Assembly: GCA_963719515.1 (NCBI GenBank)
Contig: CAVRCJ010000006.1
Span: 192,001 to 256,000, forward strand
Origin: an uncultured cyanobacterium
Lineage (GTDB): Bacteria > Cyanobacteriota > Cyanobacteriia > CAKZMO01
Length of the DNA stretch: 64,000 nucleotides
Direction of reading: 5' to 3'
Position 1 is the first letter of the stretch; each line of letters starts with the position of its first letter. Shown piece after piece: positions 2,336 to 23,592 of the stretch. A program made the translations under genes and the position numbers. The notes under the pieces were generated by a model. That model was not told where the DNA came from. It searched no databases and worked only from the letters and a program-made list of their open reading frames with translations.

Positions 2336-2644
2336 CTAGCTTCTAAACTGCTCTACGGCCTCGGTATAGCGAATCGGCAACACGTACTCCAAGTTCTCGT
2401 GAGGCCGCGCAATAATGTGGGTCGACAGGACTTCACCCCCGTTGACGCGCTTTGCGTTTTCGATGCCAGCCGCCACAGATGCCTGAACCTCGGAGACATC
2501 ACCTCGCACGATTACCGTCACGCGGCCACTTCCAATTTTCTCGTAGCCCACCAGCGTCACCCGTGCCGCCTTCACCATGGCGTCAGCCGCCTCAACGACC
2601 GCGGGAAATCCAAGAGTTTCTACCATTCCAACTGCAATCGGCAT
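2336..2644 (-). CDS. ccmK2: Carboxysome shell hexamer CcmK (102 aa, K2-like)
   Basis: [43 protein letters not shown] domain; lacks the K1 C-terminal extension. Confidence 0.93.
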
Positions 2645-3006
2645 TAGTTATCTCCTAAAGCTTTAGATACGCAAGGTTTAGTCTGGGCGCTTGAGAAAAT
2701 TGGCAACCACTCGGCATCGTCTTACCGCATGATCTACTCAAGCACTCCCAGAGAAACGTTGCTAAAAATTACCAAGCTTAAGAATACAGGCCCGCTTCGA
2801 CGTTTGGCAATATAACTTAGAATGATTATTTCAAATCCTTCCAATAAGATAATCTCATATACACCTAAAAGCCATCACCAGCTCAAATGTTTGACAGACG
2901 GTGATACATCTAATTGCTTGTTAATTATTTTTAATAATTTAGAACAGTTGATGTGGCCTCTATGCTGTACCTAGCTTTCAGAAAAGGCTAGCTCAAGATT
3001 GAATTT

Positions 3007-3042
3007 GCAGGGGCGCGAAAGCGATCGCTTTCGCGCCCCTGC
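3007..3042. repeat. Perfect 36-bp palindrome centred on HIP1, REP-like
   Basis: GCAGGGGCGCGAAAGCGATCGCTTTCGCGCCCCTGC equals its own reverse complement. Confidence 0.85.
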
Positions 3043-3344
3043 CGATACCCCCAGTAGCGCAGAAGTAGCGCAGACTCGAAAAACTATCTAGAGTTGAGCT
3101 TCCGCCGAAGGCCTCTTCAATTATCGTCCCGTTCTCCTGGTAAGCTAAGGGGTAGCCCAGATAGACGTCACGACGGTTGCTGGCCCAATCGCCGAGACGG
3201 GGTTGAGTCTTGGACAATTGGCGTTTGGCCTTTGCGCCAAAGCTGCTCCACGCATCAAAGTTAAAGGGTGCTGGAGCCGTTAGCGCATGCTGCAACTCGC
3301 CCTTGCTGCGGCTCAAATACAGTTTTTAGGATGAAGCGATCGCG

Positions 3345-5297: not shown

Positions 5298-6827
5298 ATG
5301 CTGAGTGCACTAATCTGGTTACCGCTGCTGGGGGTCGTCGTGCTCAGCGTTTTGCCCAAGGCCGAGGACCAGCGATTTCGGCAGACGACGCTGGTAATAT
5401 CGACCATCATGCTGGTTTGGACGATTGTACTGGGGGCGCAGTTTGAGATAGCGCCAGGGCTGCAGTTCTCAGAAGATATCCCCTGGATCACCAGTATCGG
5501 GCTGAGCTATCAGCTCGGCCTAGATGGCCTCTCTCTGCCCCTGGTGGTGCTCAGCAATTTTTTGACGGTGATTGCCGTACTCAGCAGCGATCGCAAACTC
5601 ATCCGCCCCCGGTTCTACTACGTGATGATTTTGCTGCTCAATGTGGGGGTAACGGGGGCATTTTTGGCTCAAGACGTGCTGCTGTTTTTCCTGTTCTACG
5701 AGTTGGAGATCATTCCCCTCTACTTCTTAATCGCAATTTGGGGAGGGGCCAAGCGGGGGTACGCAGCCACTAAGTTTTTGATCTACACTGCGCTATCGGG
5801 CGTTCTTATCCTCGCCGCTTTTTTGGGATTGGCGTGGCTGACAGAGGCCACTAGCTTCAACTACACCGTACTGCGATCGCTTGCGCCTGCGGTAGGACTG
5901 AGGGCCCAGCTAGTGCTGCTGGGCAGCCTGCTTATCGGCTTCGCCATTAAGATTCCCTTCTTCCCATTTCACACCTGGCTCCCCGACGCCCACGTCGAGG
6001 CCTCTACGCCTATTTCCGTGCTGCTAGCGGGGGTACTTCTCAAACTGGGAACCTATGGCCTGCTGCGCTTCGGCCTGGGGCTATTTTTCGAGGCCTGGCT
6101 TGTTCTTGCGCCCTGGCTAGCGATTTGGGCAGCGGTGAGCGCCCTGTACGGAGCCGCCTGCGCCATCGCTCAAACCGACATGAAAAAGGTGGTCGCCTAT
6201 TCTTCTATTGCCCATATGGCCTTTGTTCTGCTAGCTACCGCAGCCACCACGCGGCTGAGCATCGTCGCTGCGGTTTTCCAAATGGTGAGCCACGGCCTGA
6301 TCTCCGCCCTACTGTTTTTGCTGGTGGGCGTGGTGTATAAGAAGACCGGCACGCGAGACGTCAACAAGCTTAAGGGGCTGCTAAACCCGGAGCGAGGGCT
6401 TCCTTTAATCGGTAGTTTGATGATTTTGGGGGTTATGGCTAGCTCCGGGTTACCAGGTCTAGTAGGGTTCATTGCCGAATTTTTGGTCTTTCGAGGGAGC
6501 TTTCCCATCTTTCCGGTTCAGACGCTGCTCTGCATGGTGGGCACTGGCCTAACGGCGGTGTATTTCCTGCTCATGGTGAACCGGGTGTTCTTCGGCAGGC
6601 TTCCCAAAGAGCTCGCCAATTTAGAGCCGGTAACCTGGGGGGAGCGAATGCCCGCGATCGCCCTAGTGGTGCTCGTGCTGGCGTTTGGCCTCAAGCCTGA
6701 CTGGATGCTGCGCTGGAGTGAGCCTGAGGCGGGCTATCTGCTTACTGGTCGGGTGGAAGCTATTTCCTCATATCGATCTCCAGCTCGCCCGTCCTTGTCG
6801 CCTGTCCGTGCGCCCGCGCTCCTGTAG
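5298..6827 (+). CDS. ndhD4: NDH-1 CO2-uptake subunit NdhD4
   Basis: NuoM-like motifs PFHTWLPDAHVEAS and LLNPERGLP; ATG 5298 (MLSALIW) preferred to the upstream TTG. Confidence 0.92.
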   Translation: MLSALIWLPLLGVVVLSVLPKAEDQRFRQTTLVISTIMLVWTIVLGAQFEIAPGLQFSEDIPWITSIGLSYQLGLDGLSLPLVVLSNFLTVIAVLSSDRKLIRPRFYYVMILLLNVGVTGAFLAQDVLLFFLFYELEIIPLYFLIAIWGGAKRGYAATKFLIYTALSGVLILAAFLGLAWLTEATSFNYTVLRSLAPAVGLRAQLVLLGSLLIGFAIKIPFFPFHTWLPDAHVEASTPISVLLAGVLLKLGTYGLLRFGLGLFFEAWLVLAPWLAIWAAVSALYGAACAIAQTDMKKVVAYSSIAHMAFVLLATAATTRLSIVAAVFQMVSHGLISALLFLLVGVVYKKTGTRDVNKLKGLLNPERGLPLIGSLMILGVMASSGLPGLVGFIAEFLVFRGSFPIFPVQTLLCMVGTGLTAVYFLLMVNRVFFGRLPKELANLEPVTWGERMPAIALVVLVLAFGLKPDWMLRWSEPEAGYLLTGRVEAISSYRSPARPSLSPVRAPALL

Positions 6828-6894
6828 GCCTCTACAATAGAGCAGGAGTGTCCCGCAGGGTTCCGTCCATTAGCCGTCATCAGTTATCCACGCC

Positions 6895-8046
6895 ATGGTT
6901 ACCGTCAAGCCATTCTCAAACCCACCCTCAAATCCCTACATCCGTCGACTGGAAGAGGGGGGAGCTTTACTCAGCGACTCTGCGCTCCACCTTGTAGAAG
7001 TGGTGGATATTCTTAAAAGCTATGGCATGGTGCTAGACGCCTATTCCAAAAACTTAATCTACACGGGCGAAACCCAATTCCTCGTCTTTTTTCCGTTTTT
7101 TAAGTACTTCAACGGCGACGTTTCAATTGCTAAGCTCTTCCGGCACTGGCGGCATGATCGCCTCAACTACGAGTATGCAGAGTACTGCGGTAAGTCGATG
7201 TACTGGCACGGCGGCGGCGGATTGGCCGAGTACGTCGATGGACTGACGTTCAAGCCCCGAGTCGAACCCATTATCCAAAACAAGTTTAGGCATAACCCCC
7301 TGGTGCAGGCGCTGCACCGGATATTTCCGGAGTTTCTGCCTGAGCAAATGCGCCTGATGGCTTACTTTCACGGGCTAGGGCAATTTTGGCGGGTAATGAG
7401 CGACATGTTTTTGGAGCTATTCGAGCGCTATCAGCGCGGCGAAATTACCGCTATTCCCGATGTGGTTGACCATATCCGCGATGGGCTGGTGGCGGCGGCC
7501 AGCAACCCGGTGACCTACAGCGTGACGGTGGGCGATGGTCCTTCAGGACCGGCCGCAGGCCATCGCACCTACGACGTCATTCCCAAGTCAGCGGGTCTGA
7601 CCTTTTTGGCAGACCTAGCGGTTCCCTACGTTGAGGCGATCTTTTTTAGAGGCACGCCGTTCCCCGGCACCGTTTCGTACAACGCTCAGGCCTATCAGAT
7701 TCCTCTATACAAGCAGGACTTTGCCTACGGAGCGCTTTACGCCGATCCGCTGCCTATTGGCGGCTCCGGCATCCCACCCACCCAGCTCATGCAGGATATG
7801 CGTCACTTTCTGCCTGAAGACTTGCTCGAAGTCTACCGCAAGGGCACTCGCGGGGAAGACGACCTAAAAGTCAAGATTTGCGAGACATTTCAAAAATCGA
7901 TGTTTTGCGTCACCACCGCCGCGATTCAGGGGCTAGCACCCTTTCCCCTGACCACTCAAGACCCTGCTGAGCAGGAGAAAAATCGCGTCTATCTGCAGGG
8001 TTGGCTGAGCCGACTTCAACCTTCTCGGCTAGAAGACGTACAGTAA
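6895..8046 (+). CDS. cupB: CO2 hydration protein CupB (ChpX)
   Basis: HDRLNYEYAEYC, YGALYADPLPIGGSGIPPTQLMQDMRH; the ~380-aa size fits CupB rather than the longer CupA. Confidence 0.92.
   Translation: MVTVKPFSNPPSNPYIRRLEEGGALLSDSALHLVEVVDILKSYGMVLDAYSKNLIYTGETQFLVFFPFFKYFNGDVSIAKLFRHWRHDRLNYEYAEYCGKSMYWHGGGGLAEYVDGLTFKPRVEPIIQNKFRHNPLVQALHRIFPEFLPEQMRLMAYFHGLGQFWRVMSDMFLELFERYQRGEITAIPDVVDHIRDGLVAAASNPVTYSVTVGDGPSGPAAGHRTYDVIPKSAGLTFLADLAVPYVEAIFFRGTPFPGTVSYNAQAYQIPLYKQDFAYGALYADPLPIGGSGIPPTQLMQDMRHFLPEDLLEVYRKGTRGEDDLKVKICETFQKSMFCVTTAAIQGLAPFPLTTQDPAEQEKNRVYLQGWLSRLQPSRLEDVQ
7535..7561 (+). mobile_element. 27-nt double-hairpin insertion (SDR5-like) in a HIP1 site inside cupB
   Basis: GCG|ATGGTCCTTCAGGACCGGCCGCAGGCC|ATCGC; removing it restores GCGATCGC and keeps the frame. 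Confidence 0.75.
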
Positions 8047-8269: not shown

Positions 8270-11119
8270 TTGAACACGGACGCTATGACTGCCTTTCCTG
8301 TGCCCAATCCCAACCAGTCCGAGCCCTCTCTGCAGACGCCATCCCTTGATTCGGCGTCAACCGGCGCAGTGATAGCCTCTAGCGCAGACGACGTCGCTGC
8401 CGACGTTGACCGGACTGAGCCTGGCCCTGGCGCTTCTGGGGTCGCCGTGCCTGCAGGTACGGCCTCTGAGTCTCCGCCTAGTACGCCGGTCTCCGGGACC
8501 ACAATCAGCGTTCTCGCACAGCCCGTAGGGGCAGAGTCGCTTACATTTCCCCATACGAGCCAGTCATCCACACCCGCGACCGCGACCTCCCAGCTGCTCG
8601 ACTCCCCCAGCCGCTCGCTGACCATCGCCCGGGGCAGCTTTGAGGCATTTCTAGAGCCGCTCACCACCACCACCTTCAAACAGGTTGTTGAAGACGTCGA
8701 GAAGAAGCTGCTGGTTGTCAACCAAACGCTGACAATGCTCGACTCCCTGCTGGATAGCCAGGATTTCGAAGCTATTCTCAACGAAATGCTGCGCTCTATC
8801 ACGCTGAAGACGGGAGAACTGCTGAATGCCGATCGCACGACAATCTATCTCTTGGACGAAGAGAAAAACGAACTGTGGTCACTGATTGCCAAGGACGATA
8901 ACGGCGGCAATTTAGAGCTGCGGTTTCCGGCGACTCAGGGAATTGCGGGGGAGGTGGCCACCGATAAGCGGGCCATCAACATTGCCTTCGACTTTTACGA
9001 TGATCCCCGCGCGGGATTTGCCAAGCAAACCGACCAGGCCACCGGATATCGGACCTACACCATGCTGGTGATGCCGCTGCTTAATGAGCAGGGCAACCTA
9101 GTGGCGGTAGTGCAGCTGATCAACAAGCTCAAGCAGGACTACGACGCTCACACCTCCCTTGAAGCGCGGGTCAACCCAGAGGGATTCTCCGAGGAGGATA
9201 AAGACCTATTCAACGAATTCTCCCCCTCAATTCGCCTGATTTTAGAGTCGTCGCGCTCTTTCTATAAGGCCGCTCAAAAGCAGCGGGCGGCGTCGGCGCT
9301 GATGAAGGCCACCCAGGCGCTGAGTCAGAGCAGTCTGGACCTGGGCGAAACGCTAGAGCGGGTGATGAACGAGGCCAAAGAGCTAATGCAGGCCGACCGC
9401 AGCACCCTGTGGCTGCTGGACGAAGCGCGCCAGGAGCTGTGGACCCGGATCCCCATCCAGGGCGAGCTACAGGAGTACCGCATTCCCAAAGATGCTGGAT
9501 TTGCGGGCCAGGTGGCAGCGACCGGCGAGCCCGTCATCATCCCTTTTGATCTCTACAGCCATCCCAACGCCGAGAAATCAAAAGAGACCGACCGCCACAG
9601 CGGCTACCGCACCTGCAGCATTCTCTGTATGCCGGTGTTCAACACTGACGGCCTGCTGATTGGCGTGACGCAGCTGATCAACAAGGTGCGTCAGGGGGAT
9701 TATCCTGCCTACAATCCAGCCTACTGGCCTGAAGCCCCCGAACGCTGGAAGGCAAGCTTCAACCGCACGGATCTAGAGTTCATGCAGGCGTTTAACACGC
9801 AGGCGGGCGTCGCCCTGCAGAACGCTAAGCTCTTTGACACGGTGAAGCAGCAGGAGCTGATGCAGCGCGACATTTTGCGATCGCTCTCCAACGGCGTGCT
9901 GTCCACCGATCACGAGGGGCGCATTATTGCCGCCAACGAAAGCGCCCGGGCGCTGCTGCACCTGCCCGACGATGTTGCCCTCGAAGGCCGCCAAATCGAC
10001 ACGCTGATTTCTATTGAGGAGCTGGACTTTTCAGACTGCTTTCGGCGGGCCCTGTCTCCAAAAGACGACGTCGACCGCAGGCAGTACTACCCCGAGCAAA
10101 CCCTGGACGCTAAGCGCGGTGAAGACCACCCCGTTGCCCAGCACAGCGTCCATCTCTCAATCAACTCCATTGCCGATGCTAAAGACGCCACCGACGTCTA
10201 CGGGGCGCTGGTGGTAATGGACGACATCAGCGACGAAAAGCGGCTGAAGAGCACCATGTACCGCTACATGAGCCAAGAGGTGGCGGAGCAGCTGCTCAAC
10301 TCGGGAGAGCTGCGGCTGGGGGGCGATCGCAAAGAGGTATCGGTGCTGTTCTCGGACATCCGCGGCTTTACCACCATTGCCGAAAGCATGGACGCTGAAG
10401 AGCTGGTGATCATGCTCAACGACTACTTCGAGACCATGGTGGACGCCGTCATGGCCTACAAAGGCACCCTAGACAAGTACATCGGCGACGCGATTATGGC
10501 CGTGTTCGGCTCGCCGCTGGCCCTAGAAGACCACGCCTGGCGAGCGCTGCAAACCAGCGTTGAAATGCGTCACCGCCTAGAGGCCTTTAACCAGATTCGG
10601 GGGGGGCGTCAGCAGCAGCCCATCAAAATTGGCATCGGCATCAACTCCGGCAGCGTCATCAGCGGCAACATCGGCTCTAGCAAGCGGATGGAGTTTACGG
10701 CCATTGGTGACGGGGTTAACTTAGGGGCGAGGCTGGAAGGGGCGACGAAGCAGTACGGCTGCGACATCGTGATTAGCGAAAACACCTACCGCCCCTGCGC
10801 CGATCAGGTGTGGGCCCTAGAGCTAGACCGAATTCGGGTCAAAGGCAAAAACGACCCCGTGGCTATCTATCATCTGGTAGCCCTGCGCTCCGAGACGCTT
10901 TCGGGCAAAGAGCAACAGCGTATCGATCTCTACACGACTGGGCGAGAGCACTACCTCAACCGGCAGTTTGCCAAAGCGATGGGTAAGTTTGCCCTGGTTT
11001 TAGAAGAGGTAGACTGTAACGACAAAGCCGCAGCCGAACAGCTCAGGCGCTGTCAGTACTGGCTTGAGCACCCGCCTTCCGACGATTGGGACGGGGTTTG
11101 GTCCCTCACCCAGAAGTAG
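8270..11119 (+). CDS. cyaB: GAF-GAF-PAS class III adenylate cyclase, CyaB type
   Basis: Two GAF domains (ADRTTIYLLD..VVQLINK; ADRSTLWLLD..VTQLINK), PAS, catalytic VLFSDIRGFT/DKYIGDAIMA/IGDGVNLGARLEG and TPR-like tail; start uncertain (TTG 8270 or ATG 8285). Confidence 0.9.
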   Translation: MNTDAMTAFPVPNPNQSEPSLQTPSLDSASTGAVIASSADDVAADVDRTEPGPGASGVAVPAGTASESPPSTPVSGTTISVLAQPVGAESLTFPHTSQSSTPATATSQLLDSPSRSLTIARGSFEAFLEPLTTTTFKQVVEDVEKKLLVVNQTLTMLDSLLDSQDFEAILNEMLRSITLKTGELLNADRTTIYLLDEEKNELWSLIAKDDNGGNLELRFPATQGIAGEVATDKRAINIAFDFYDDPRAGFAKQTDQATGYRTYTMLVMPLLNEQGNLVAVVQLINKLKQDYDAHTSLEARVNPEGFSEEDKDLFNEFSPSIRLILESSRSFYKAAQKQRAASALMKATQALSQSSLDLGETLERVMNEAKELMQADRSTLWLLDEARQELWTRIPIQGELQEYRIPKDAGFAGQVAATGEPVIIPFDLYSHPNAEKSKETDRHSGYRTCSILCMPVFNTDGLLIGVTQLINKVRQGDYPAYNPAYWPEAPERWKASFNRTDLEFMQAFNTQAGVALQNAKLFDTVKQQELMQRDILRSLSNGVLSTDHEGRIIAANESARALLHLPDDVALEGRQIDTLISIEELDFSDCFRRALSPKDDVDRRQYYPEQTLDAKRGEDHPVAQHSVHLSINSIADAKDATDVYGALVVMDDISDEKRLKSTMYRYMSQEVAEQLLNSGELRLGGDRKEVSVLFSDIRGFTTIAESMDAEELVIMLNDYFETMVDAVMAYKGTLDKYIGDAIMAVFGSPLALEDHAWRALQTSVEMRHRLEAFNQIRGGRQQQPIKIGIGINSGSVISGNIGSSKRMEFTAIGDGVNLGARLEGATKQYGCDIVISENTYRPCADQVWALELDRIRVKGKNDPVAIYHLVALRSETLSGKEQQRIDLYTTGREHYLNRQFAKAMGKFALVLEEVDCNDKAAAEQLRRCQYWLEHPPSDDWDGVWSLTQK

Positions 11120-16763: not shown

Positions 16764-16790
16764 TTTTTGTAGGGATGTGTTTGGCGTTTT

Positions 16791-17325
16791 GGAGGACCCC
16801 CTCTAGCTCCCCCTTGGTAAGGGGGAGAACCATGGCCCCGATAGGTGTTTAGCGTTTCGGAGGACCCCCTCTAGCTTTCCCTTGGTAAGGGGGAGAACCA
16901 TGACCCCGATAGGTGTTTAGCGTTTCGGAGGACCGGGGATGTTTGAAAAGTGGTAGCAGTTCTGCATTACCCCCTCTAGCTCCCCCTTGCTAAGGGGGAG
17001 AACCATGGCCCCGGTAGGTGTTTAGCGTTTCGGAGGACCGGGGATGTTTGAAAAGTGGTAGCAGTTCTGCATTGCCCCCTCTAGCTCCCCCTTGGTAAGG
17101 GGGAGAACCATGGCCCCGATAGGTGTTTAGCGTTTCGGAGGACCCCCTCTAGCTCCCCTACGCCCTGCGGGCAGGCTAACGCCAAAGCTCAAGGGGGAGA
17201 ACCACGATTCCCTGCCTTCGTAAGGGCTACGGTGTACATACAGGTCTGCCCTCCTCTGACTTTCTCACGCCCCTTGGCTTTCGCGCAGCGCGTCCTACGG
17301 ACGCAGGGGGATTAAGGGGGGTAAA
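16791..17325. repeat. Tandem array of hairpin-containing units (68, 68, 105, 105 bp plus a fifth interrupted copy)
   Basis: GGAGGACC at 16791, 16859, 16927, 17032, 17137; core CCCCCTCTAGCTCCCCCTTGGTAAGGGGGAGAACC. Confidence 0.9.
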
Positions 17326-17407
17326 GCCAGGATGTATGGCGATCGCTCCACACTTGATGAAAAGGTACCAGCGCCCTGTCCCCAACCTGTCCCCTACTAA
17401 AGACCCC

Positions 17408-17899
17408 ATGACCTCCATGACCCTAAGAATCGGCAACGGCTACGACATTCACCGCCTCGTGCCCGATCGCCCCCTGATTTTGGGCGGCGTCGAAATTCCC
17501 CACACCCTGGGGCTAGACGGCCACAGCGACGCCGATGCCCTCACCCACGCCATCATGGACGCCATGCTGGGGGCGCTGAGCCTGGGAGATATCGGCCATT
17601 ACTTTCCCCCTAGCGACCCGAAGTGGGCGGGGGCCGACAGTATTGAGCTGCTGCGGCAGGTGAATCGGCTGATTGGCGATGCGGGCTGGCAGGTGGGCAA
17701 TATCGACAGCACCTTGGTGGCGGAGCAGCCGAAGCTGAAGCCTCACATCAAGGCGATGACGGAGCGGCTGGCGGAGGCGCTGGGGTGCGATCGCGCTCAG
17801 GTGAGCGTTAAAGCGACTACGAATGAGCGGCTGGGGCCGACGGGGCGTGAGGAGGGGATTGCGGCCTATGCGGTGGTGCTGCTGACTCAGAGTAAGTGA
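17408..17899 (+). CDS. ispF: 2-C-methyl-D-erythritol 2,4-cyclodiphosphate synthase
   Basis: [31 protein letters not shown]. Confidence 0.97.
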
Positions 17900-18119
17900 G
17901 AAGGCTGCACTTATGTGTAAGTTTTGGGTTTCCGGAACTGCGGCGGGCGATCGCGCTTTGGCGGACCGAAAATTTGAGCGTTGGTGGGGCTGTGCTGGAG
18001 GGATGGCTGAGGGGGAAGGCTTTGCGGTGTCTGAGCTTGAGCCGCCCAGGGAGAATCGTGAAGAATTTATTATGTTAGAGGAGTTTTCTTGTGGGCGTGT
18101 TAATGTAGGGGGGTCGGAT

Positions 18120-18296
18120 GAACCTTGAAAACCGCATTATTACGTTTACCCGCCTAAAGTCCTTGTTAGATAAGGGTTTCAGCCGCTTTCTGAGGTTTCT
18201 ACTTGCTCGGAGAATGGCCTTATTGACAAGGCGATCGGACCCCCCTGAAAAGTGGGGTTTGGAGGGCGCTCTCTGTAAGGCTTCTAGGAGCCGAGG
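18120..18296 (+). promoter_or_regulatory. Leader of CRISPR array 1
   Basis: Non-coding region before the first repeat; motif GAACCTTGAAAAC (18120-18132) is shared with the array 2 leader; the degenerate repeat is at the far end of the array. Confidence 0.65.
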
Positions 18297-19590
18297 GTTG
18301 AGCACCTCATCACCCCGCGAGGGGACTGAAACCTGGTTTGCAGTTTACCCTCAACACGTAACAATGAGTTGAGCACCTCATCACCCCGCGAGGGGACTGA
18401 AACAGTGATGCTGAGTCGAGCCAACTTGCCATGTTCGGTTGAGCACCTCATCACCCCGCGAGGGGACTGAAACCTGTCACAGGATCGCCCACGTTACCAT
18501 GTTAGGTTGAGCACCTCATCACCCCGCGAGGGGACTGAAACTGTTTCTCAGACCCAGGTTGGTTCGGGTCTTCAGGGTTGAGCACCTCATCACCCCGCGA
18601 GGGGACTGAAACTGGGGATGACTTCTATGCCTTCATCAGTTGCGCCAGGTTGAGCACCTCATCACCCCGCGAGGGGACTGAAACGCGAGCGACGAGGCAG
18701 AGGCTACCCAGACTCAAAGTTGAGCACCTCATCACCCCGCGAGGGGACTGAAACTCCCCGCTACACGTTTGCGCAACTGCGCTTCCGTTGAGCACCTCAT
18801 CACCCCGCGAGGGGACTGAAACGCGCAATTGCTTCGCATTCATCAGGATTTTCATACCGTTGAGCACCTCATCACCCCGCGAGGGGACTGAAACCGTAAA
18901 GTTTGTCTGTGCCTGAACCACGCCAAGAGTTGAGCACCTCATCACCCCGCGAGGGGACTGAAACAAGTGTGATTACACCAGTAGCTTGTACGTCATCGTT
19001 GAGCACCTCATCACCCCGCGAGGGGACTGAAACCAACGATTACGTCGTTGCTAAAGCTTACGCCGCTTGGTTGAGCACCTCATCACCCCGCGAGGGGACT
19101 GAAACTATATAGACGGCTTTTCCTCATAATTAAGGTCTTGTTGAGCACCTCATCACCCCGCGAGGGGACTGAAACATCTATTGTTAGTCAGACGAAAAGA
19201 TGCTTAACGGTTGAGCACCTCATCACCCCGCGAGGGGACTGAAACTTGGCCCCATGGCCAATCACTTCGCGGAGCGGCGTTGTTCAGCACCTCATCACCC
19301 CGCGAGGGGACTGAAACGTCTACTCTCGAGTTAACTATCAAGCCAATTCCGTGTTGAGCACCTCATCACCCCGCGAGGGGACTGAAACTTGAAGCCAGAG
19401 CCGTATTCTTTGAAACCTTCTAGTTGAGCACCTCATCACCCCGCGAGGGAACTGAAACTAGATCCCGTTACTCTCAATAAATCCTCCTATTAGTTGAGCA
19501 CCTCATCACCCCGCGAGGGGACTGAAACAGTTCACTCAGCTCAACAGGTAATACTGAAAGCTTTGGTCGAGCACCTACATCACCCCGCGA
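18297..19590 (+). CRISPR. CRISPR array 1: 18 full 36-bp repeats plus 1 truncated terminal repeat, 18 spacers of about 32-37 nt
   Basis: Repeat GTTGAGCACCTCATCACCCCGCGAGGGGACTGAAAC from 18297 to 19528; degenerate GTCGAGCACCTACATCACCCCGCGA at 19566-19590; spacers unique. Confidence 0.98.
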
Positions 19591-19654
19591 TCGCCCTCCT
19601 ACCCAGCAACGCCAGACCGGTAATCTCGAACGGTCGCTTAGAGCAATCGACACG

Positions 19655-19900
19655 CCGAGCCTTGAGACCGAAACATCAAGCTTTGAACCCAACGTTCCGA
19701 GCTTCGAGCCCGAGATTCCAAGCTCTGAGCCTGACTATTTGAGCTTTGAACCCGACACTTCGAGCTTTGAACTCGGCGCACCGAGCTTCGAGCTTGAGAT
19801 TTCAAGCTCTGAGCCTGACGTTCCGAGCTTCGAGCCTGACCATTTGAGCTTTGAACCTAATACTCCGAGCTGTGAGCCTGACGTTCTGGGCCTGGAGATT
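19655..19900. repeat. Degenerate 21-bp tandem repeat (about 11-12 units)
   Basis: Units such as CCGAGCTTCGAGCCCGAGATT, CCAAGCTCTGAGCCTGACTAT, TTGAGCTTTGAACCCGACACT. Confidence 0.85.
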
Positions 19901-19925
19901 GAAGGCGATCGCTAGGCGAGTGAAA

Positions 19926-20396
19926 CTAAGCTTCTTCGCCATGGGGCGGCTCAAACACGATTTCAAACTGGCCTTTGGGCATGTAGCGACGAATCGCCCG
20001 CAGATGGTCGTCGGCGTCTTGGCGGTTGCGGAAGCGGGCCACGACGTGGCGCTGCATCTTTTCGCGCAGGAGCACCAGCATCCAGGGGTGGCAGCCTGGC
20101 GGCAGCATTGACACCTCTAGGCAGGCGACCCGTGACGGGTCTAAGACCGACTGAAGAATTTGGATGATCTGCTCTCTTGTGGGGCTGTCGTCGATGGGAT
20201 GGAGAACCCAGCCTGGTGTGGGGTTGAGCTGAAAGCTGAGCTGGTAGCCCTGATGGGACTGAGAGCGATATACGGTCCAGGCGGGGTGCTGTAGTCGCTG
20301 ATAAATCTTGAAGCCTTGGGCTTGGAGGGCGGCTTGGATGCGAAAAATTTCCATAGCGATGTGGCGGTCTTGGGGACCACGGGTGGGGTGAGTCAT
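19926..20396 (-). CDS. Hypothetical two-domain protein between the CRISPR arrays
   Basis: 156-aa ORF from ATG 20396; C-terminal PW..MQRHVVARFRNRQDADDHLRAIRR..P...FEIVFE resembles a small uncharacterised cyanobacterial family. Confidence 0.7.
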   Translation of the reverse strand: MTHPTRGPQDRHIAMEIFRIQAALQAQGFKIYQRLQHPAWTVYRSQSHQGYQLSFQLNPTPGWVLHPIDDSPTREQIIQILQSVLDPSRVACLEVSMLPPGCHPWMLVLLREKMQRHVVARFRNRQDADDHLRAIRRYMPKGQFEIVFEPPHGEEA

Positions 20397-20440
20397 AGGA
20401 ATTGGCCGAGGTTGAGATGCGGTTCTCCCAAAGTTAACAC

Positions 20441-20465
20441 ACAGTGTGCACACTGTTTGCACACT
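20441..20465. promoter_or_regulatory. Putative operator between the divergent genes
   Basis: Perfect palindrome ACAGTGTGCACACTGT (20441-20456) plus an extra half-site TGCACACT (20458-20465). Confidence 0.55.
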
Positions 20466-20512
20466 TTAGGTAAAATATTGCTCATCCGGTAATCTGGTGA
20501 GGTGCGAAACTC

Positions 20513-20698
20513 ATGCAATTTGACGACGTGGCAACAAACAAGGCCAGGCTGGTTGCTTATTGCGACCCAGAGACAAAAGAAAAGCTTGAGAAATTGGCCG
20601 AACTTCGACTCCGAAGCTTGAGCAATTTGATCGAGTCTGTACTGGTTGAGGAGGTTGCCAAAGCTGAAGCTAATGGAGAGCTAGATTTGGGTAGCTGA
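20513..20698 (+). CDS. Ribbon-helix-helix (CopG/Arc-like) DNA-binding protein
   Basis: KARLVAYCD beta strand, PETKEKLEKLAELR helix, RSLSNLIESVLVEEV helix; GTG 20528 is an alternative start. Confidence 0.8.
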   Translation: MQFDDVATNKARLVAYCDPETKEKLEKLAELRLRSLSNLIESVLVEEVAKAEANGELDLGS

Positions 20699-20699
20699 C

Positions 20700-20804
20700 G
20701 TAGGTTGGGTTGGAGCGTAAGCGTAACCCAACGCTATCAATCGTCTTGTTGGGTTTCCTGACGTCTTAGCGCAGCCATGCCCGCAGGGCTATACCGCAAC
20801 CTAC
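20700..20804. repeat. GTAG-type REP doublet (REPIN-like) with a nested small insertion
   Basis: GTAGGTTGGGTT...AACCCAAC...GTTGGGTTTC...CAACCTAC inverted ends. Confidence 0.65.
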
Positions 20805-21107
20805 AGAACACGATTAGCGTGGCGAACAGTGCCACCTATCGCCACGCTATCCGTCGCTGCGCTAATGGGTAGGTGTTTGAGGTGAACGCTAATGTGATGC
20901 CGCTCAAAAGCAGACAGCGTATAGGATGCAGGCGATCGCACCAGAAAAGAGGTTAGCGCAATGGCTGAAAACTAGTAGGAGTAGGAGTTTGACGCTTTGT
21001 GGGTTTGTAGTGATTGGGGCACTTTAGCGATGGATGTGTTAGATTTGGGTAGATTAGCGCAAACGAACCTTGAAAACTTGATAGGCACTCCGTTTCAAAG
21101 TGCCGCA

Positions 21108-21793
21108 GTCGCAATGACCTAATACCCCGCAAGGGGATTGAAACAGCTGTGTTGATTTTTCCTAGATAAGTTTTTACTGTCGCAATGACCTAGTACCCCG
21201 CAAGGGGATTGAAACCTTTAGTGAAGCGTATATCGTGCCCGATTAGAGGAGTCGCAATGACCTAGTACCCCGCAAGGGGATTGAAACTAAAAGTCGGCAC
21301 AGGTTGCAGCTCATGGACGTATGGTCGCAATGACCTAATACCCCGTAAGGGGATTGAAACAGAGCGAGGGCAGTCATGCCGAGCGATTTGCAGTGGTCGC
21401 AATGACCTAATACCCCGCAAGGGGATTGAAACGACTATCTCGCTGCAGTCGATAGACGGACGATTGCAGTCGCAATGACCTAATACCCCGCAAGGGGATT
21501 GAAACCAAATTCGGCATCGTAACTGACAGGGGATCTAGTTGTCGCAATGACCTAATACCCCGCAAGGGGATTGAAACAGCTCGCTATGACCTGGCAGCTT
21601 TGAAAAGATGTGTCGCAATGACCTAATACCCCGCAAGGGGATTGAAACTAAGAATTGATGTGGGTGAAAGAAGAAGATCGAAAAGGTCGCAATGACCTAA
21701 TACCCCGCAAGGGGATTGAAACGCAGTTATCAATATCAATCTCAAGCTGACGCTGCAGTCGCAATGATCTAATACCCCGAGGGGAATTGAAAC
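21108..21793 (+). CRISPR. CRISPR array 2: ten 37-bp repeats (last degenerate), 9 spacers
   Basis: Repeat GTCGCAATGACCTAATACCCCGCAAGGGGATTGAAAC at 21108, 21179, 21251, 21324, 21396, 21469, 21541, 21612, 21686, 21758; leader motif GAACCTTGAAAAC at 21065. Confidence 0.98.
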
Positions 21794-21825
21794 ACCTACT
21801 CAGCGAAATCAACGCTGAGTAGGTG
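21793..21825 (+). terminator. Hairpin directly after the last repeat of array 2
   Basis: CACCTACTCAGCG-AAATCAA-CGCTGAGTAGGTG, 13-bp perfect stem. Confidence 0.6.
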
Positions 21826-21873
21826 CGTTTGCCCACGTGCGATCGCCTACCAGAACACCCCTCACGGAATTCT

Positions 21874-22161
21874 GATACCGCTGGCGAAAAATTTCGTAAT
21901 CGAGCTGCACGCTCTGGAGGCCCCCTCCGCCCTCAATCCTGATACCACTGGCGAAAAGTTTCGTAATCGAGCTGCACGCTTTCGAGGCCCCCTAACCCCC
22001 AATTCTGGGGGAACCGGAGCAGTGGCCATACTATTCGCGGCTATTGACTTTAAGGAGTTCTAACCTCTCTGAAGTCCCTCGAATTGGGGGATTGAGGGGG
22101 CCTTCTCCGGGGCAGGAAATAGCCGAGATGTAAGCAAGACATGAAATTCGCCAGCGGTATC
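21874..22161. mobile_element. MITE with terminal inverted repeats, a 6-bp target-site duplication and a duplicated left end
   Basis: GATACCGCTGGCGAA...TTCGCCAGCGGTATC flanked by AATTCT on both sides (21868-21873, 22162-22167); second left-end copy at 21941. Confidence 0.75.
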
Positions 22162-22251
22162 AATTCTTACGAGACTCCACCTTCCGAGCTTCACCCCTCC
22201 TGAATCAGCAATCAAAGCTCCGCTTCAGAGCCAACGCGATCGCCCAAACCC

Positions 22252-23592
22252 TCAAATCCAGGGATCCTCATCCTCCTCAGCCGATGACGACGTCGAGGGT
22301 TCATCTGTCAAAGCTCCCTCCCCAGACTCCTGTCCATCCCGCGCAGCAGGCTCATCAGCCACAGGTTCCACAACATCAGCATTCTCAGCCACCTCATCGA
22401 CCCAGTCATCCCAGACGTCGCGCTCGTCCGTCTCCAAATCCTGCCCATCGCCCAACGCCTCAGAAGCGATCGCCGCATCCTTCTCCTTGGAATCAGCCAA
22501 AGGCTCTGGCGGCACGTCACCCACTGGCTGAGCGTCCACCTTCCCCTCCGCAGGCTCAGAAACCTGCTCCGCCGCCTCATCCCAGCCATCCCCTCCCCCA
22601 TCCCCACCGGCAGGAACCACTCGCGCCTCAGCAGGACTGCTCTGAGGCCCAGAGCGCGGCGCTTCCTCCTCCCAGTCCTCCAGCCCATCCGGTTCAGAGA
22701 CCTCAGGTTCAGAGACCTCGACGCGATCGCTCCCCCTAGCGCCCCCCTCTTCAACGTCGCCCCAGTCCCCCCAATCGTCCAAATCCTCATCTTCCAAGTC
22801 AGGATCGCCAGTCGGCTCGCCGCGCGGGATTGCCTGCTCCACCCGCTCAGTGACCGTCTGCACCTCAGTTTGAATCGTGCGCACCACCTCCTGCGCCTCT
22901 TGGGAAAAATCCTGCGACAGGGTCTGCGCCCGCTCCCGCGCTCGCTGCACCAGACTCCCCATCTGGCCCTGAGCCCGCTCCGCCATCCCTTGCACCTGAG
23001 ACGAGAGCGATCGCAGCTCTCGGGTGACGCTGTCCACATACTCTTCCTTGAGCATGGCGCGAATTTGGGCCAGCCGCTGCCGTAGGCCAGGCTGATAGAT
23101 CTCCAGCGCCTCCACCTCGTCCGCCGAAATCAGGGTGCGCTTGGCGCTAAAGCTAATAATTTGCTTCGGGGACAGCAGGTAGGTGCCGTCGGTGACCGCC
23201 GCCCAGGTGCCGGGGGTCATCAGGTAGCGCAAAATGACGCCATTGTCGGGGTTAAACAGGCAGTCCACCAGTTTTCCCACCCGCTCACCGCGATCGCTCC
23301 ACACCTCTTGGCCAATCAGCGACTCCAGCTGCTGCACCTTAGCCGCCACCGTCGGCTCTGGCTCTCCCTGCATCAGCAGCTTGTCCTCCCCCACCGCGTC
23401 AATCTGCGTCAGCTTAAACACCAGCCGCTTGGCCCCAAAGCGCCCCGGACGGCAGACCACCCCCAAGACGCGGTTGCGCTGGGGATACATCCACAGCGTC
23501 TCGACCCGGCCCACCTCCTCCATGGTCTGGCTGTCGAGGATGAGCTGACCTACAAGGTCGCGGTACTGCAAAATATCGGCGGGCTGAGTCAT
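22252..23592 (-). CDS. Tandem PRC-barrel domain protein with coiled coil and long acidic tail
   Basis: DLVGQLILDSQTMEEVGRVE and LIGQEVWSDRGERVGKLVDCLFNPDNGVI PRC motifs; D/E/W-rich C-terminus. Confidence 0.85.
   Translation of the reverse strand: MTQPADILQYRDLVGQLILDSQTMEEVGRVETLWMYPQRNRVLGVVCRPGRFGAKRLVFKLTQIDAVGEDKLLMQGEPEPTVAAKVQQLESLIGQEVWSDRGERVGKLVDCLFNPDNGVILRYLMTPGTWAAVTDGTYLLSPKQIISFSAKRTLISADEVEALEIYQPGLRQRLAQIRAMLKEEYVDSVTRELRSLSSQVQGMAERAQGQMGSLVQRARERAQTLSQDFSQEAQEVVRTIQTEVQTVTERVEQAIPRGEPTGDPDLEDEDLDDWGDWGDVEEGGARGSDRVEVSEPEVSEPDGLEDWEEEAPRSGPQSSPAEARVVPAGGDGGGDGWDEAAEQVSEPAEGKVDAQPVGDVPPEPLADSKEKDAAIASEALGDGQDLETDERDVWDDWVDEVAENADVVEPVADEPAARDGQESGEGALTDEPSTSSSAEEDEDPWI

Follow-up and report, generated by a model that had tools for sequence, protein, structure and literature searches.

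Cyanobacteria often keep their CRISPR (clusters of regularly interspaced short palindromic repeats) arrays at a distance from their cas genes, a habit that an earlier note on the DNA treated here had mentioned and that is established in the literature (10.1101/2020.04.14.041012). One of the closest described cases, that of Anabaena sp. PCC 7120, is reported to involve cas-free arrays that are processed in trans by a remote Cas6 (Reimann et al. 2020, 10.1101/2020.04.14.041012). The boxA element, furthermore, is known from the CRISPR leaders of Salmonella, Vibrio and Myxococcus, where it is described as countering Rho (10.64898/2026.07.09.737519), and the 12-mer GAACCTTGAAAA is given as the boxA of cyanobacterial 16S-23S spacers (PMC8461337). 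The locus described here lies in a 64-kb stretch of DNA (the window) from an uncultured cyanobacterium, and comprises two CRISPR arrays on either side of a gene for a small ribbon-helix-helix (RHH) protein and a divergent gene for a 156-amino-acid (156-aa) protein of no known family. We consider it moderately probable that this is an inserted island whose orphan arrays became detached from type III loci, and that the gene pair is a plasmid-type, self-regulated cassette which travels with the second array and does not control it.

The window, G000:C6:192001-256000, belongs to an assembly of 5.28 Mb in 21 contigs (G000) with an estimated completeness of 100%; this genome encodes PipX, and the closest relative carries the label Elainellaceae. 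The comparisons below involve three genomes of the same genus (G001, G003 and G004), a 6.5-kb metagenome contig (L113), and plasmid pMIC7113.03 of Allocoleopsis franciscana PCC 7113 (L109; NC_019740.1, 8716-21102). The repeat and leader families of arrays 1 and 2 are referred to as type-1 and type-2, respectively.

The earlier note had reported two co-oriented arrays, each with its own leader, and no cas gene in the 64 kb, and this description holds: the arrays are separated by 1.58 kb, and a scan of the 42 non-nested open reading frames (ORFs) of at least 120 aa against Pfam (E ≤ 1e-5) returned no Cas family match. Eight of these ORFs gave no match at all, while those with a match represent housekeeping functions such as ChpY, cyanophycin synthetase, TrmD, Hsp33, acetate kinase, PNPase and FtsH. 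Array 1 is built on the repeat GTTGAGCACCTCATCACCCCGCGAGGGGACTGAAAC, with 16 of the 18 copies exact and two carrying one mismatch; its 17 spacers (32-36 nt) are all unique, and a decayed 19th repeat copy is present at ~19566-19591. Array 2 has ten copies of the repeat GTCGCAATGACCTAATACCCCGCAAGGGGATTGAAAC, of which six are exact, three differ at one position and the tenth is degenerate; its nine spacers measure 34-37 nt. No spacer is duplicated across the two arrays (lengths 32-37 nt). Each array consequently displays what is expected of a CRISPR array, namely at least three near-identical repeats of 23-50 nt with unique spacers of similar length, together with a leader on one side and a degenerate terminal repeat.

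Both repeats contain a four-pair CCCC/GGGG hairpin followed by an 8-nt tail, ACUGAAAC in array 1 and AUUGAAAC in array 2, and a hairpin with an 8-nt 3' tail ending in GAAAC is the Cas6-type arrangement. The best match among the Rfam CRISPR-DR models was CRISPR-DR10 at 27.3 bits, below the gathering score of 39; this shortfall places the repeats outside the curated DR families and is no argument against their identity as CRISPR repeats. As to targets, neither array matched any of 50,697 phage records in blastn, an exact search of IMG/VR with two leader-proximal spacers (26 nt each) was negative, and the 56 spacers of four arrays (the array at C5:126k being outside this set) produced only short chance matches of at most 19 nt in their own genome and the fetched loci. 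Sediment contigs from four runs of one study carry the same module junctions at 95-99% identity and the same repeats joined to other spacers; since that study may be the source of the assembly, these contigs provide no independent support.

Three further arrays are present in G000, at C5:108052-109476, C5:126095-126851 and C10:416422-417401. The repeat of the first differs from that of array 1 by three mismatches, and this array adjoins a csm locus, while the repeat of the C10 array differs from that of array 2 by a single mismatch. The C10 array is also cas-less, being flanked by a cyclopropane-fatty-acid synthase gene and a histidine kinase gene. The array on L113, in turn, has a repeat with two mismatches to that of array 2 and lies downstream of csm4-csm5-cas6. 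Judged by these neighbours, both repeat families are assigned to type III (Csm) loci, family 1 beside the csm locus of contig C5 and family 2 after csm4-csm5-cas6 in L113. The classification of the repeats had been proposed in the earlier note, which took them for Cas6-processed class 1 repeats of types I-D or III: the hairpin, the 8-nt tail and the csm neighbours agree with type III, while the I-D part did not stand, Csc2 (Cas7d, the I-D marker; TIGR03157) having no match in G000.

The same note had asked for the cas operons of the remaining genome, and only one cas locus was found in G000, on contig C5 between the two C5 arrays (C5:109971-120174). It includes Cas10/Csm1 as a 791-aa open frame and an open TIR-SAVED gene, together with csm3 in two pieces with the middle missing, csm4 in three pieces or frames with one TAG, and a cas1 of which only a C-terminal remnant, the last third, is left. 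cas2 was looked for in G000 and not found. The partner system therefore looks partly decayed and devoid of an adaptation module, and with no working cas1-cas2 in G000 the arrays cannot grow in this strain. The locus also holds a cas6 fragment, besides an intact gene (C5:127419-128618, L090) for a Cas6 fused to a C-terminal sigma-70 region-4 helix-turn-helix (HTH), hereafter Cas6-HTH, which is the only intact cas6 of G000. A Cas6 encoded at another locus would process precursor CRISPR RNA from the window, with cleavage 8 nt short of each repeat's end; Cas6-HTH is the candidate processor, and the resulting CRISPR RNAs (crRNAs) would be used, if at all, by the type III effector of C5. Cas6-HTH (~380-420 aa) is conserved, with matches in 19 of 41 relatives' genomes (E ≤ 1e-10), 12 matches being full length, and additionally on pMIC7113.03.

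Between the arrays, the earlier note had recognized an RHH gene and a divergent gene for a 156-aa product, and both are confirmed. The RHH ORF matches Pfam RHH_1 (PF01402) with an E value of 4.6e-4 and 20.5 bits, exactly at the cut-off, and its 44 homologues at 72-100% identity include several named as CopG family by their sources (NCBI). Two putative operator sites, at 20444 and 20455, occupy the middle of the 116-bp intergenic region, 48 and 49 nt from the two start codons; they fall in and beside a perfect 16-nt palindrome, ACAGTGTGCACACTGT, and overlap the -35 box of a promoter-like site, TGCACA-18-TAAAAT. Within the 64-kb window, these are the only two sites resembling GTGTGCACAC, and related sites occur upstream of RHH homologues in other cyanobacteria (L074-L079) and in L113. 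Repeated predicted half-sites at the gene's own promoter are what a CopG-type regulator is expected to have. The RHH protein would bind this tandem pair of GTGTGCACAC-like sites at the exact centre of the region and, because these overlap its own -35 box, would repress itself and probably the 156-aa gene as well; we infer from this arrangement of sites an autorepression at the divergent promoter. The predicted complex of two RHH copies with the 156-aa protein obtained a score of 0.00, which counts neither way on binding.

Close homologues of the RHH protein were found at nine loci in 8 of 400 other genomes of the class, belonging to four other families; the window's own family yielded none at E ≤ 1e-12. 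The homologues are accompanied by genes for Rep/primase-like proteins, a divergent HTH protein and members of the Uma2 family, and one homologue (77% identity) resides on plasmid pB of Kovacikia minuta. None of the ten loci considered (the nine close ones and that of G001) has an array within ~8 kb, and none of the nine close loci has a relative of the 156-aa protein.

The 156-aa protein has 14 relatives among 5.8 billion proteins, and its start, MTHPTRGPQD, is conserved among them. It has no match in Pfam, NCBIfam or PADLOC, the latter two databases providing nothing useful for the RHH ORF either. A profile search gathered 419 proteins at E ≤ 0.001, many of which consist of the N-terminal or the C-terminal domain alone. 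The AlphaFold (AF2) model, with a mean predicted local distance difference test (pLDDT) value of 73, contains an alpha-beta4-alpha domain and a beta-beta-alpha-beta domain; Foldseek returned no match in the PDB at E ≤ 0.001, and the ESM Atlas offered only clusters of cyanobacterial hypothetical proteins. The best VIA-align hit (Z 7.4) was to a KA1-like fold and covered residues 9-89 only, a value in the range of common structural arrangements, and no function was drawn from it.

The distribution of this family resembles that of a mobile gene. G000 itself has six short paralogues consisting of the C-terminal domain only; a small, divergently oriented HTH or RHH gene is found near five of these. 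Of 17 genomes of the order, 14 contain matches, at one to eight each. A conserved block in Nodosilinea, Almyronema and Leptolyngbya ends with the full-length form, which is preceded by genes for proteins of 166 and 109 aa. In G001, the same 166-aa/109-aa/full-length cassette is divergent from an RHH gene (46% identity) and lies beside a PAPS-reductase-like gene, and the three-gene cassette recurs on four plasmids, beside integrases, MobB, the CyRepA1 replication gene or DISARM. No array was found at any of the 23 genome loci of the 156-aa family. Both families occur chiefly on plasmids and mobile elements of cyanobacteria, where CRISPR is not nearby.

The evidence that ties the pair to array 2 comes from L113, where the gene order is csm4, csm5, cas6, a Uma2 gene, a 117-aa gene, a second Uma2 gene, a 147-aa gene, the 156-aa gene, the operator, the RHH gene, a 212-aa gene, a leader with boxA, and a type-2 array. 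Identity between the window and L113 amounts to 79% for the 156-aa protein and 95% for the RHH protein. The ratio of nonsynonymous to synonymous divergence (dN/dS) is 0.18 for the former and 0.07 for the latter at a synonymous divergence (dS) of ~0.7, and such low ratios at this distance indicate that both genes are functional; their link with the type-2 array has also been retained.

The island itself spans 4.36 kb (~17900-22250) between ispF and a PRC-barrel gene. In G003, the corresponding order is trmD, ispF, 512 bp and the PRC-barrel gene, while in G001 only 627 nt separate ispF from the conserved part of the PRC gene; neither genome has arrays there. The whole 4.36-kb block is an insertion, absent from G003 and G001. 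One G004 contig has the PRC gene at its end and, at its start, a spacer and a terminal type-2 repeat 1.15 kb away from the gene; this implies that the site already held a type-2 array before G000 and G004 diverged. These results bear on the possibility that the pair is a recent, independent and functionless insertion that came to lie between the arrays by chance. The lack of the island in G003 and G001 would suit this, as would the fact that the site collects repeats and MITE-like elements; however, the order of pair, leader and array is shared with L113 across a dS of ~0.7 under low dN/dS, which already disfavours the idea, and G004 has a type-2 array at the same chromosomal site. We regard it as improbable. 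Of the independent insertion that the earlier note had offered as its alternative, the insertion part is upheld for the island as a whole, and the independence is not, since the gene order of L113 shows that the pair did not arrive separately from array 2.

Our preferred reading, that of a travelling cassette, has to be weighed against a number of observations that pull the other way. In G004, 16 nt separate the end of the closest homologue of the 156-aa protein (81% identity; one in-frame TAG) from the Cas6-HTH orthologue that follows it. On pMIC7113.03, a member with 38% identity lies between cas1-cas2 and the leader of a second array. In total, full-length members are situated inside CRISPR-Cas loci in 4 of 14 contexts (the window, G004, L113 and pMIC7113.03), the contexts counted being the window, L022, L023-L027, L035, L083, L109, L110 and L113-L115. 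The family is found inside CRISPR-Cas loci more often than expected of a pure passenger, and the purifying selection on the array-2-linked pair is equally compatible with a locus-bound function and with a selfish cassette. Furthermore, the frameshifts in csm3 and csm4 could in part be assembly errors, and the array detector requires three exact 18-20-mers and was applied to many short contigs, so that arrays near relatives were possibly missed. Two of its calls, in L133 and L136, proved to be a coding repeat and a cluster of hairpin repeats, respectively, and not CRISPR.

On pMIC7113.03, the first array lies upstream, with a repeat that is related but not the same, and 2 kb downstream of the family member is the gene for a Cas6-HTH orthologue (52% identity). 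The gaps at 2524-3090 and 6779-7545 of the L109 segment contain CRISPR arrays of 8 and 11 repeats, the repeats of the two differing in their 5' half only, and PLSDB lists no repeat features there.

Such observations would be explained if the pair genuinely served the type III CRISPR-Cas loci of cyanobacteria as an accessory or regulatory module, in which the RHH protein might, for example, set read-through into leader 2 and array 2, and the 156-aa protein might act with Cas6-HTH or the Csm complex. The conserved position of the pair beside a type-2 leader and array in L113 under purifying selection, the nearness of family members to cas6-HTH in G004 and on pMIC7113.03, where the member also sits between cas2 and a leader with its array, and the proportion of CRISPR-linked contexts all favour this view. 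So does a search of the + strand from the RHH gene to array 2, which revealed nothing like a terminator, and small Arc-like RHH repressors divergent from cas12k are known from CRISPR-associated transposons (CASTs) of cyanobacteria (PMC9938897).

On the other hand, the RHH operator occurs at the gene's own promoter and was not found in the leaders of arrays 1 and 2, arrays were found at none of the ten RHH loci counted above and 156-aa relatives at none of the nine close ones, and of the 12 full-length Cas6-HTH loci only one is accompanied by a 156-aa family member. The six Nodosilinea-type loci and those of G001 and pMIC7113.01 show no CRISPR, and the RHH gene of L113 does not adjoin the leader, a 212-aa gene lying between them. 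Moreover, the window, G004 and L113 form one clade, which leaves only two independent CRISPR-linked events. No CRISPR was found near the loci encoding the C-terminal domain only (0 of 39, or 37 after removal of two duplicates). The association between the 156-aa family and CRISPR is suggestive, and it could reflect the frequent location of cyanobacterial CRISPR-Cas loci on plasmids. An accessory or regulatory role for the pair is possible, if unlikely. For the proposal of a CRISPR-linked accessory in the earlier note the evidence is mixed: L113, the dN/dS values and the 4 of 14 contexts speak for it, while the array-free loci (0 of 23 and 0 of 10), the plasmid homes of both families and the leaders devoid of the operator speak against it.

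A more specific version, which we consider quite unlikely, would have the 156-aa protein as an undescribed type III accessory with a small DNA-binding partner (the RHH protein or the ~100-aa HTH-like protein of the cassette), positioned beside a leader with Cas6-HTH and, for example, controlling crRNA production or keeping the locus in place. Were this true, the plasmid copies would represent a pool of recruitment.

Two further explanations concern the nature of the pair itself. Many antitoxins have the RHH fold, and the pair might be a toxin-antitoxin-like addiction module that stabilizes the island, with the RHH protein as antitoxin and the 156-aa protein as toxin. In addition to the fold, the multicopy and mobile-element-linked character of the families is compatible with this, and the CRISPR and defence loci of G000 do include toxin-antitoxin-like pairs, such as PIN_10 with DUF433/HTH at the C5 locus. 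The two genes are, however, divergent and do not form one operon, as a type II toxin-antitoxin system would; the 156-aa protein has no toxin family match in Pfam, NCBIfam or PADLOC; close RHH homologues have other partners; and members of the 156-aa family pair with several unrelated kinds of HTH or RHH protein. We find this interpretation, which the earlier note had listed, very improbable.

The same list had included an anti-CRISPR (Acr) and anti-CRISPR-associated (Aca) pair, that is, counter-defence cargo of a mobile element integrated between the arrays. A small gene of no known family beside a small, autoregulated DNA-binding gene, both from families present on mobile elements, does recall such pairs. 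Known acr-aca pairs are co-directional, with aca downstream of a small acr on a phage or plasmid, whereas the pair in the window is divergent. Neither the RHH family nor the 156-aa family was found in IMG/VR viral contigs, the island has no integrase or element ends, and the pair has been held in a host CRISPR locus under purifying selection at a dS of ~0.7. An Acr/Aca-like nature appears very improbable.

Returning to the cassette that travels with array 2, the pair would have been joined to the type-2 leader and array before the lineage of L113 split off, and would have remained so. The parent would be an L113-like type III locus in which the pair lay between the leader and the end of the operon that carries cas6. 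The csm side would then have been lost from the window, with array 1 and the 21-nt tandem repeat now in its place, and the pair would persist as a resident passenger and not as a controller of the arrays.

Both leaders have homologues elsewhere in G000: the one upstream of array 1 aligns over ~180 nt with those of the two C5 arrays, and the one upstream of array 2 aligns over 45-56 nt with the C10 leader. The sole stretch that is invariant across all five G000 leaders is the 13-mer GAACCTTGAAAAC, which occurs at eight sites in G000, namely the five leaders, two ribosomal RNA (rRNA) spacers just upstream of 23S rRNA and one other site, compared with ~0.16 occurrences expected by chance (our own arithmetic). 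The leader element is identical to the boxA of the genome's own rRNA operons, and NusB is encoded in G000 (120 bits), as expected where boxA is of the rRNA type. In loci fetched from other cyanobacteria, the 12-mer boxA is present with at most one mismatch within 350-400 nt of 8 of 11 arrays, the other three being one with an incomplete flank and the two PCC 7113 arrays.

Nothing in G000 reached the family cut-off for Rho (best 26.8 bits vs 509), which means that the usual anti-Rho role of a leader boxA cannot apply as such. This raises the question as to what use Nus-type antitermination may have for crRNA transcription in such a genome. A literature search on boxA, CRISPR and cyanobacteria found no paper describing this combination; Stringer 2020 lay outside the coverage of the search, and hence we do not claim that the observation is unpublished. 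In G004, a further locus (L086, G004:C481) presents a type-2 leader with a single repeat, then cas1-cas2, then a type-1-like, boxA-containing leader and an array built on the repeat GTTTCATCCTCATTACCCCGCAAGGGGACGGAAAC; in that genome, both leader families are therefore physically linked around the adaptation genes.

The island also contains several repeated elements (Table 1). The 21-nt tandem repeat has no second copy in G000; G004:C713 and the end of G002:C219 have comparable tandem repeats, which are not beside genes of the 156-aa family. A 58-aa ORF over this repeat (19739-19915) has no match in Pfam, NCBIfam or PADLOC and was treated as non-coding. The idea that the repeat might serve as an iteron or centromere-like site for the RHH protein was dropped, given that similar repeats in the genus lie away from such genes and that the repeat of the island shares nothing with the operator. 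The element directly after the RHH gene has at least six further partial copies in G000 (on C6, C10, C3 and C11), and 55-85-nt matches in many other cyanobacterial genomes. Copies of the MITE-like (miniature inverted-repeat transposable element) sequence at the right edge, with 95-97% identity, are present on C11 (two), C1 (two), C3 and C5. Outside the island, the interval 16790-17150, between trmD and ispF, consists of four tandem copies of a unit of ~70-105 nt, a 63-nt piece of which is also located ~280 nt downstream of the orphan C10 array (C10:417680-417742).

Table 1. Positions of the features discussed. Plain numbers refer to the window; other positions carry a contig or locus label.
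Feature	Position	Strand	Remarks
ispF (YgbB), left flank	17336-17899	+	Pfam YgbB, E 6.4e-69
Array 1 leader	18100-18296	+	boxA GAACCTTGAAAAC at 18120-18132
CRISPR array 1	18297-19528	+	18 repeats of 36 nt, 17 spacers
21-nt tandem repeat	19647-19898		12 imperfect copies, core GAGCTTYGARCC, 84-nt super-period
156-aa two-domain protein, no known family	19926-20396	-	gene and start conserved
Predicted operator and promoter region	20444-20476	+	GTGTGCACAC and GTTTGCACAC, 11 nt apart
CopG-family RHH protein, 61 aa	20513-20698	+	Pfam RHH_1 at cut-off
Short repeated element, ~100 nt	20700-20805		directly after RHH stop codon; arms GGTTGGGTT...AACCCAAC
Array 2 leader	20856-21107	+	boxA at 21065-21077; homologous to C10 and L113 leaders
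CRISPR array 2	21108-21793	+	10 repeats of 37 nt, 9 spacers
MITE-like multicopy element, ~230 bp	21868-22163		right edge of island; 67-nt internal duplication; repeat family D7
PRC-barrel protein gene, right flank	22252-23592	-	Pfam PRC, E 1.2e-11
boxA in leaders beyond the window	C5:109641, C5:127014, C10:416379		
boxA in rrn spacers beyond the window	C10:206466, C14:208858		
boxA site beyond the window	C6:140154		neither leader nor rrn spacer
Cas6-HTH orthologues	L088, L089, L091-L099; L109 at 8556-9683		

If the passenger reading is correct, the locus would be another case of CRISPR fragmentation in a filamentous-type cyanobacterium, in which arrays outlive their cas genes and carry plasmid-type cassettes. 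It would also be useful for annotation, because it warns against naming every gene between two arrays 'CRISPR-associated'. Whichever reading applies, the 156-aa protein represents an uncharacterized cyanobacterial family with 419 profile hits and no Pfam model, whose full-length form is found inside type III loci of two unrelated lineages.

Among described systems, the locus is close in outline to that of Anabaena sp. PCC 7120, which is likewise described as having several arrays in repeat groups, most of them far from the cas cassettes, and a tendency towards fragmentation (10.1101/2020.04.14.041012). It differs in that the only cas locus here appears partly decayed and devoid of cas1-cas2, which makes function uncertain, and in that the candidate Cas6 is fused to a sigma-70 region-4 HTH. 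The leaders share with the described boxA/Nus antitermination systems a boxA identical to that of the organism's own rRNA operons; the enteric boxA is described as countering Rho (10.64898/2026.07.09.737519), whereas G000 encodes NusB and has no Rho at the cut-off, so that a different role would be needed here.

With the Arc-like RHH repressors of cyanobacterial V-K CASTs, as these are described, the pair has in common an RHH gene of 53-72 aa that is divergent from its partner at a CRISPR-related locus, and a likely operator that overlaps the promoter (Ziemann et al. 2023, PMC9938897). The partner in the window is, however, the 156-aa protein and not cas12k. Furthermore, the RHH gene of the window is co-oriented with the array, and its close homologues lie mainly on plasmids without CRISPR.

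Finally, pMIC7113.03 differs from the window in having a complete locus (cas1, cas2 and RAMP genes) and in that its family member is the third gene of a co-directional three-gene cassette, with no divergent RHH gene listed in a PLSDB gene table that is incomplete. It nevertheless resembles the window in its two co-oriented arrays with related but different repeats and their own leaders, in the 156-aa-family member directly upstream of the second leader, and in the Cas6-HTH orthologue nearby.

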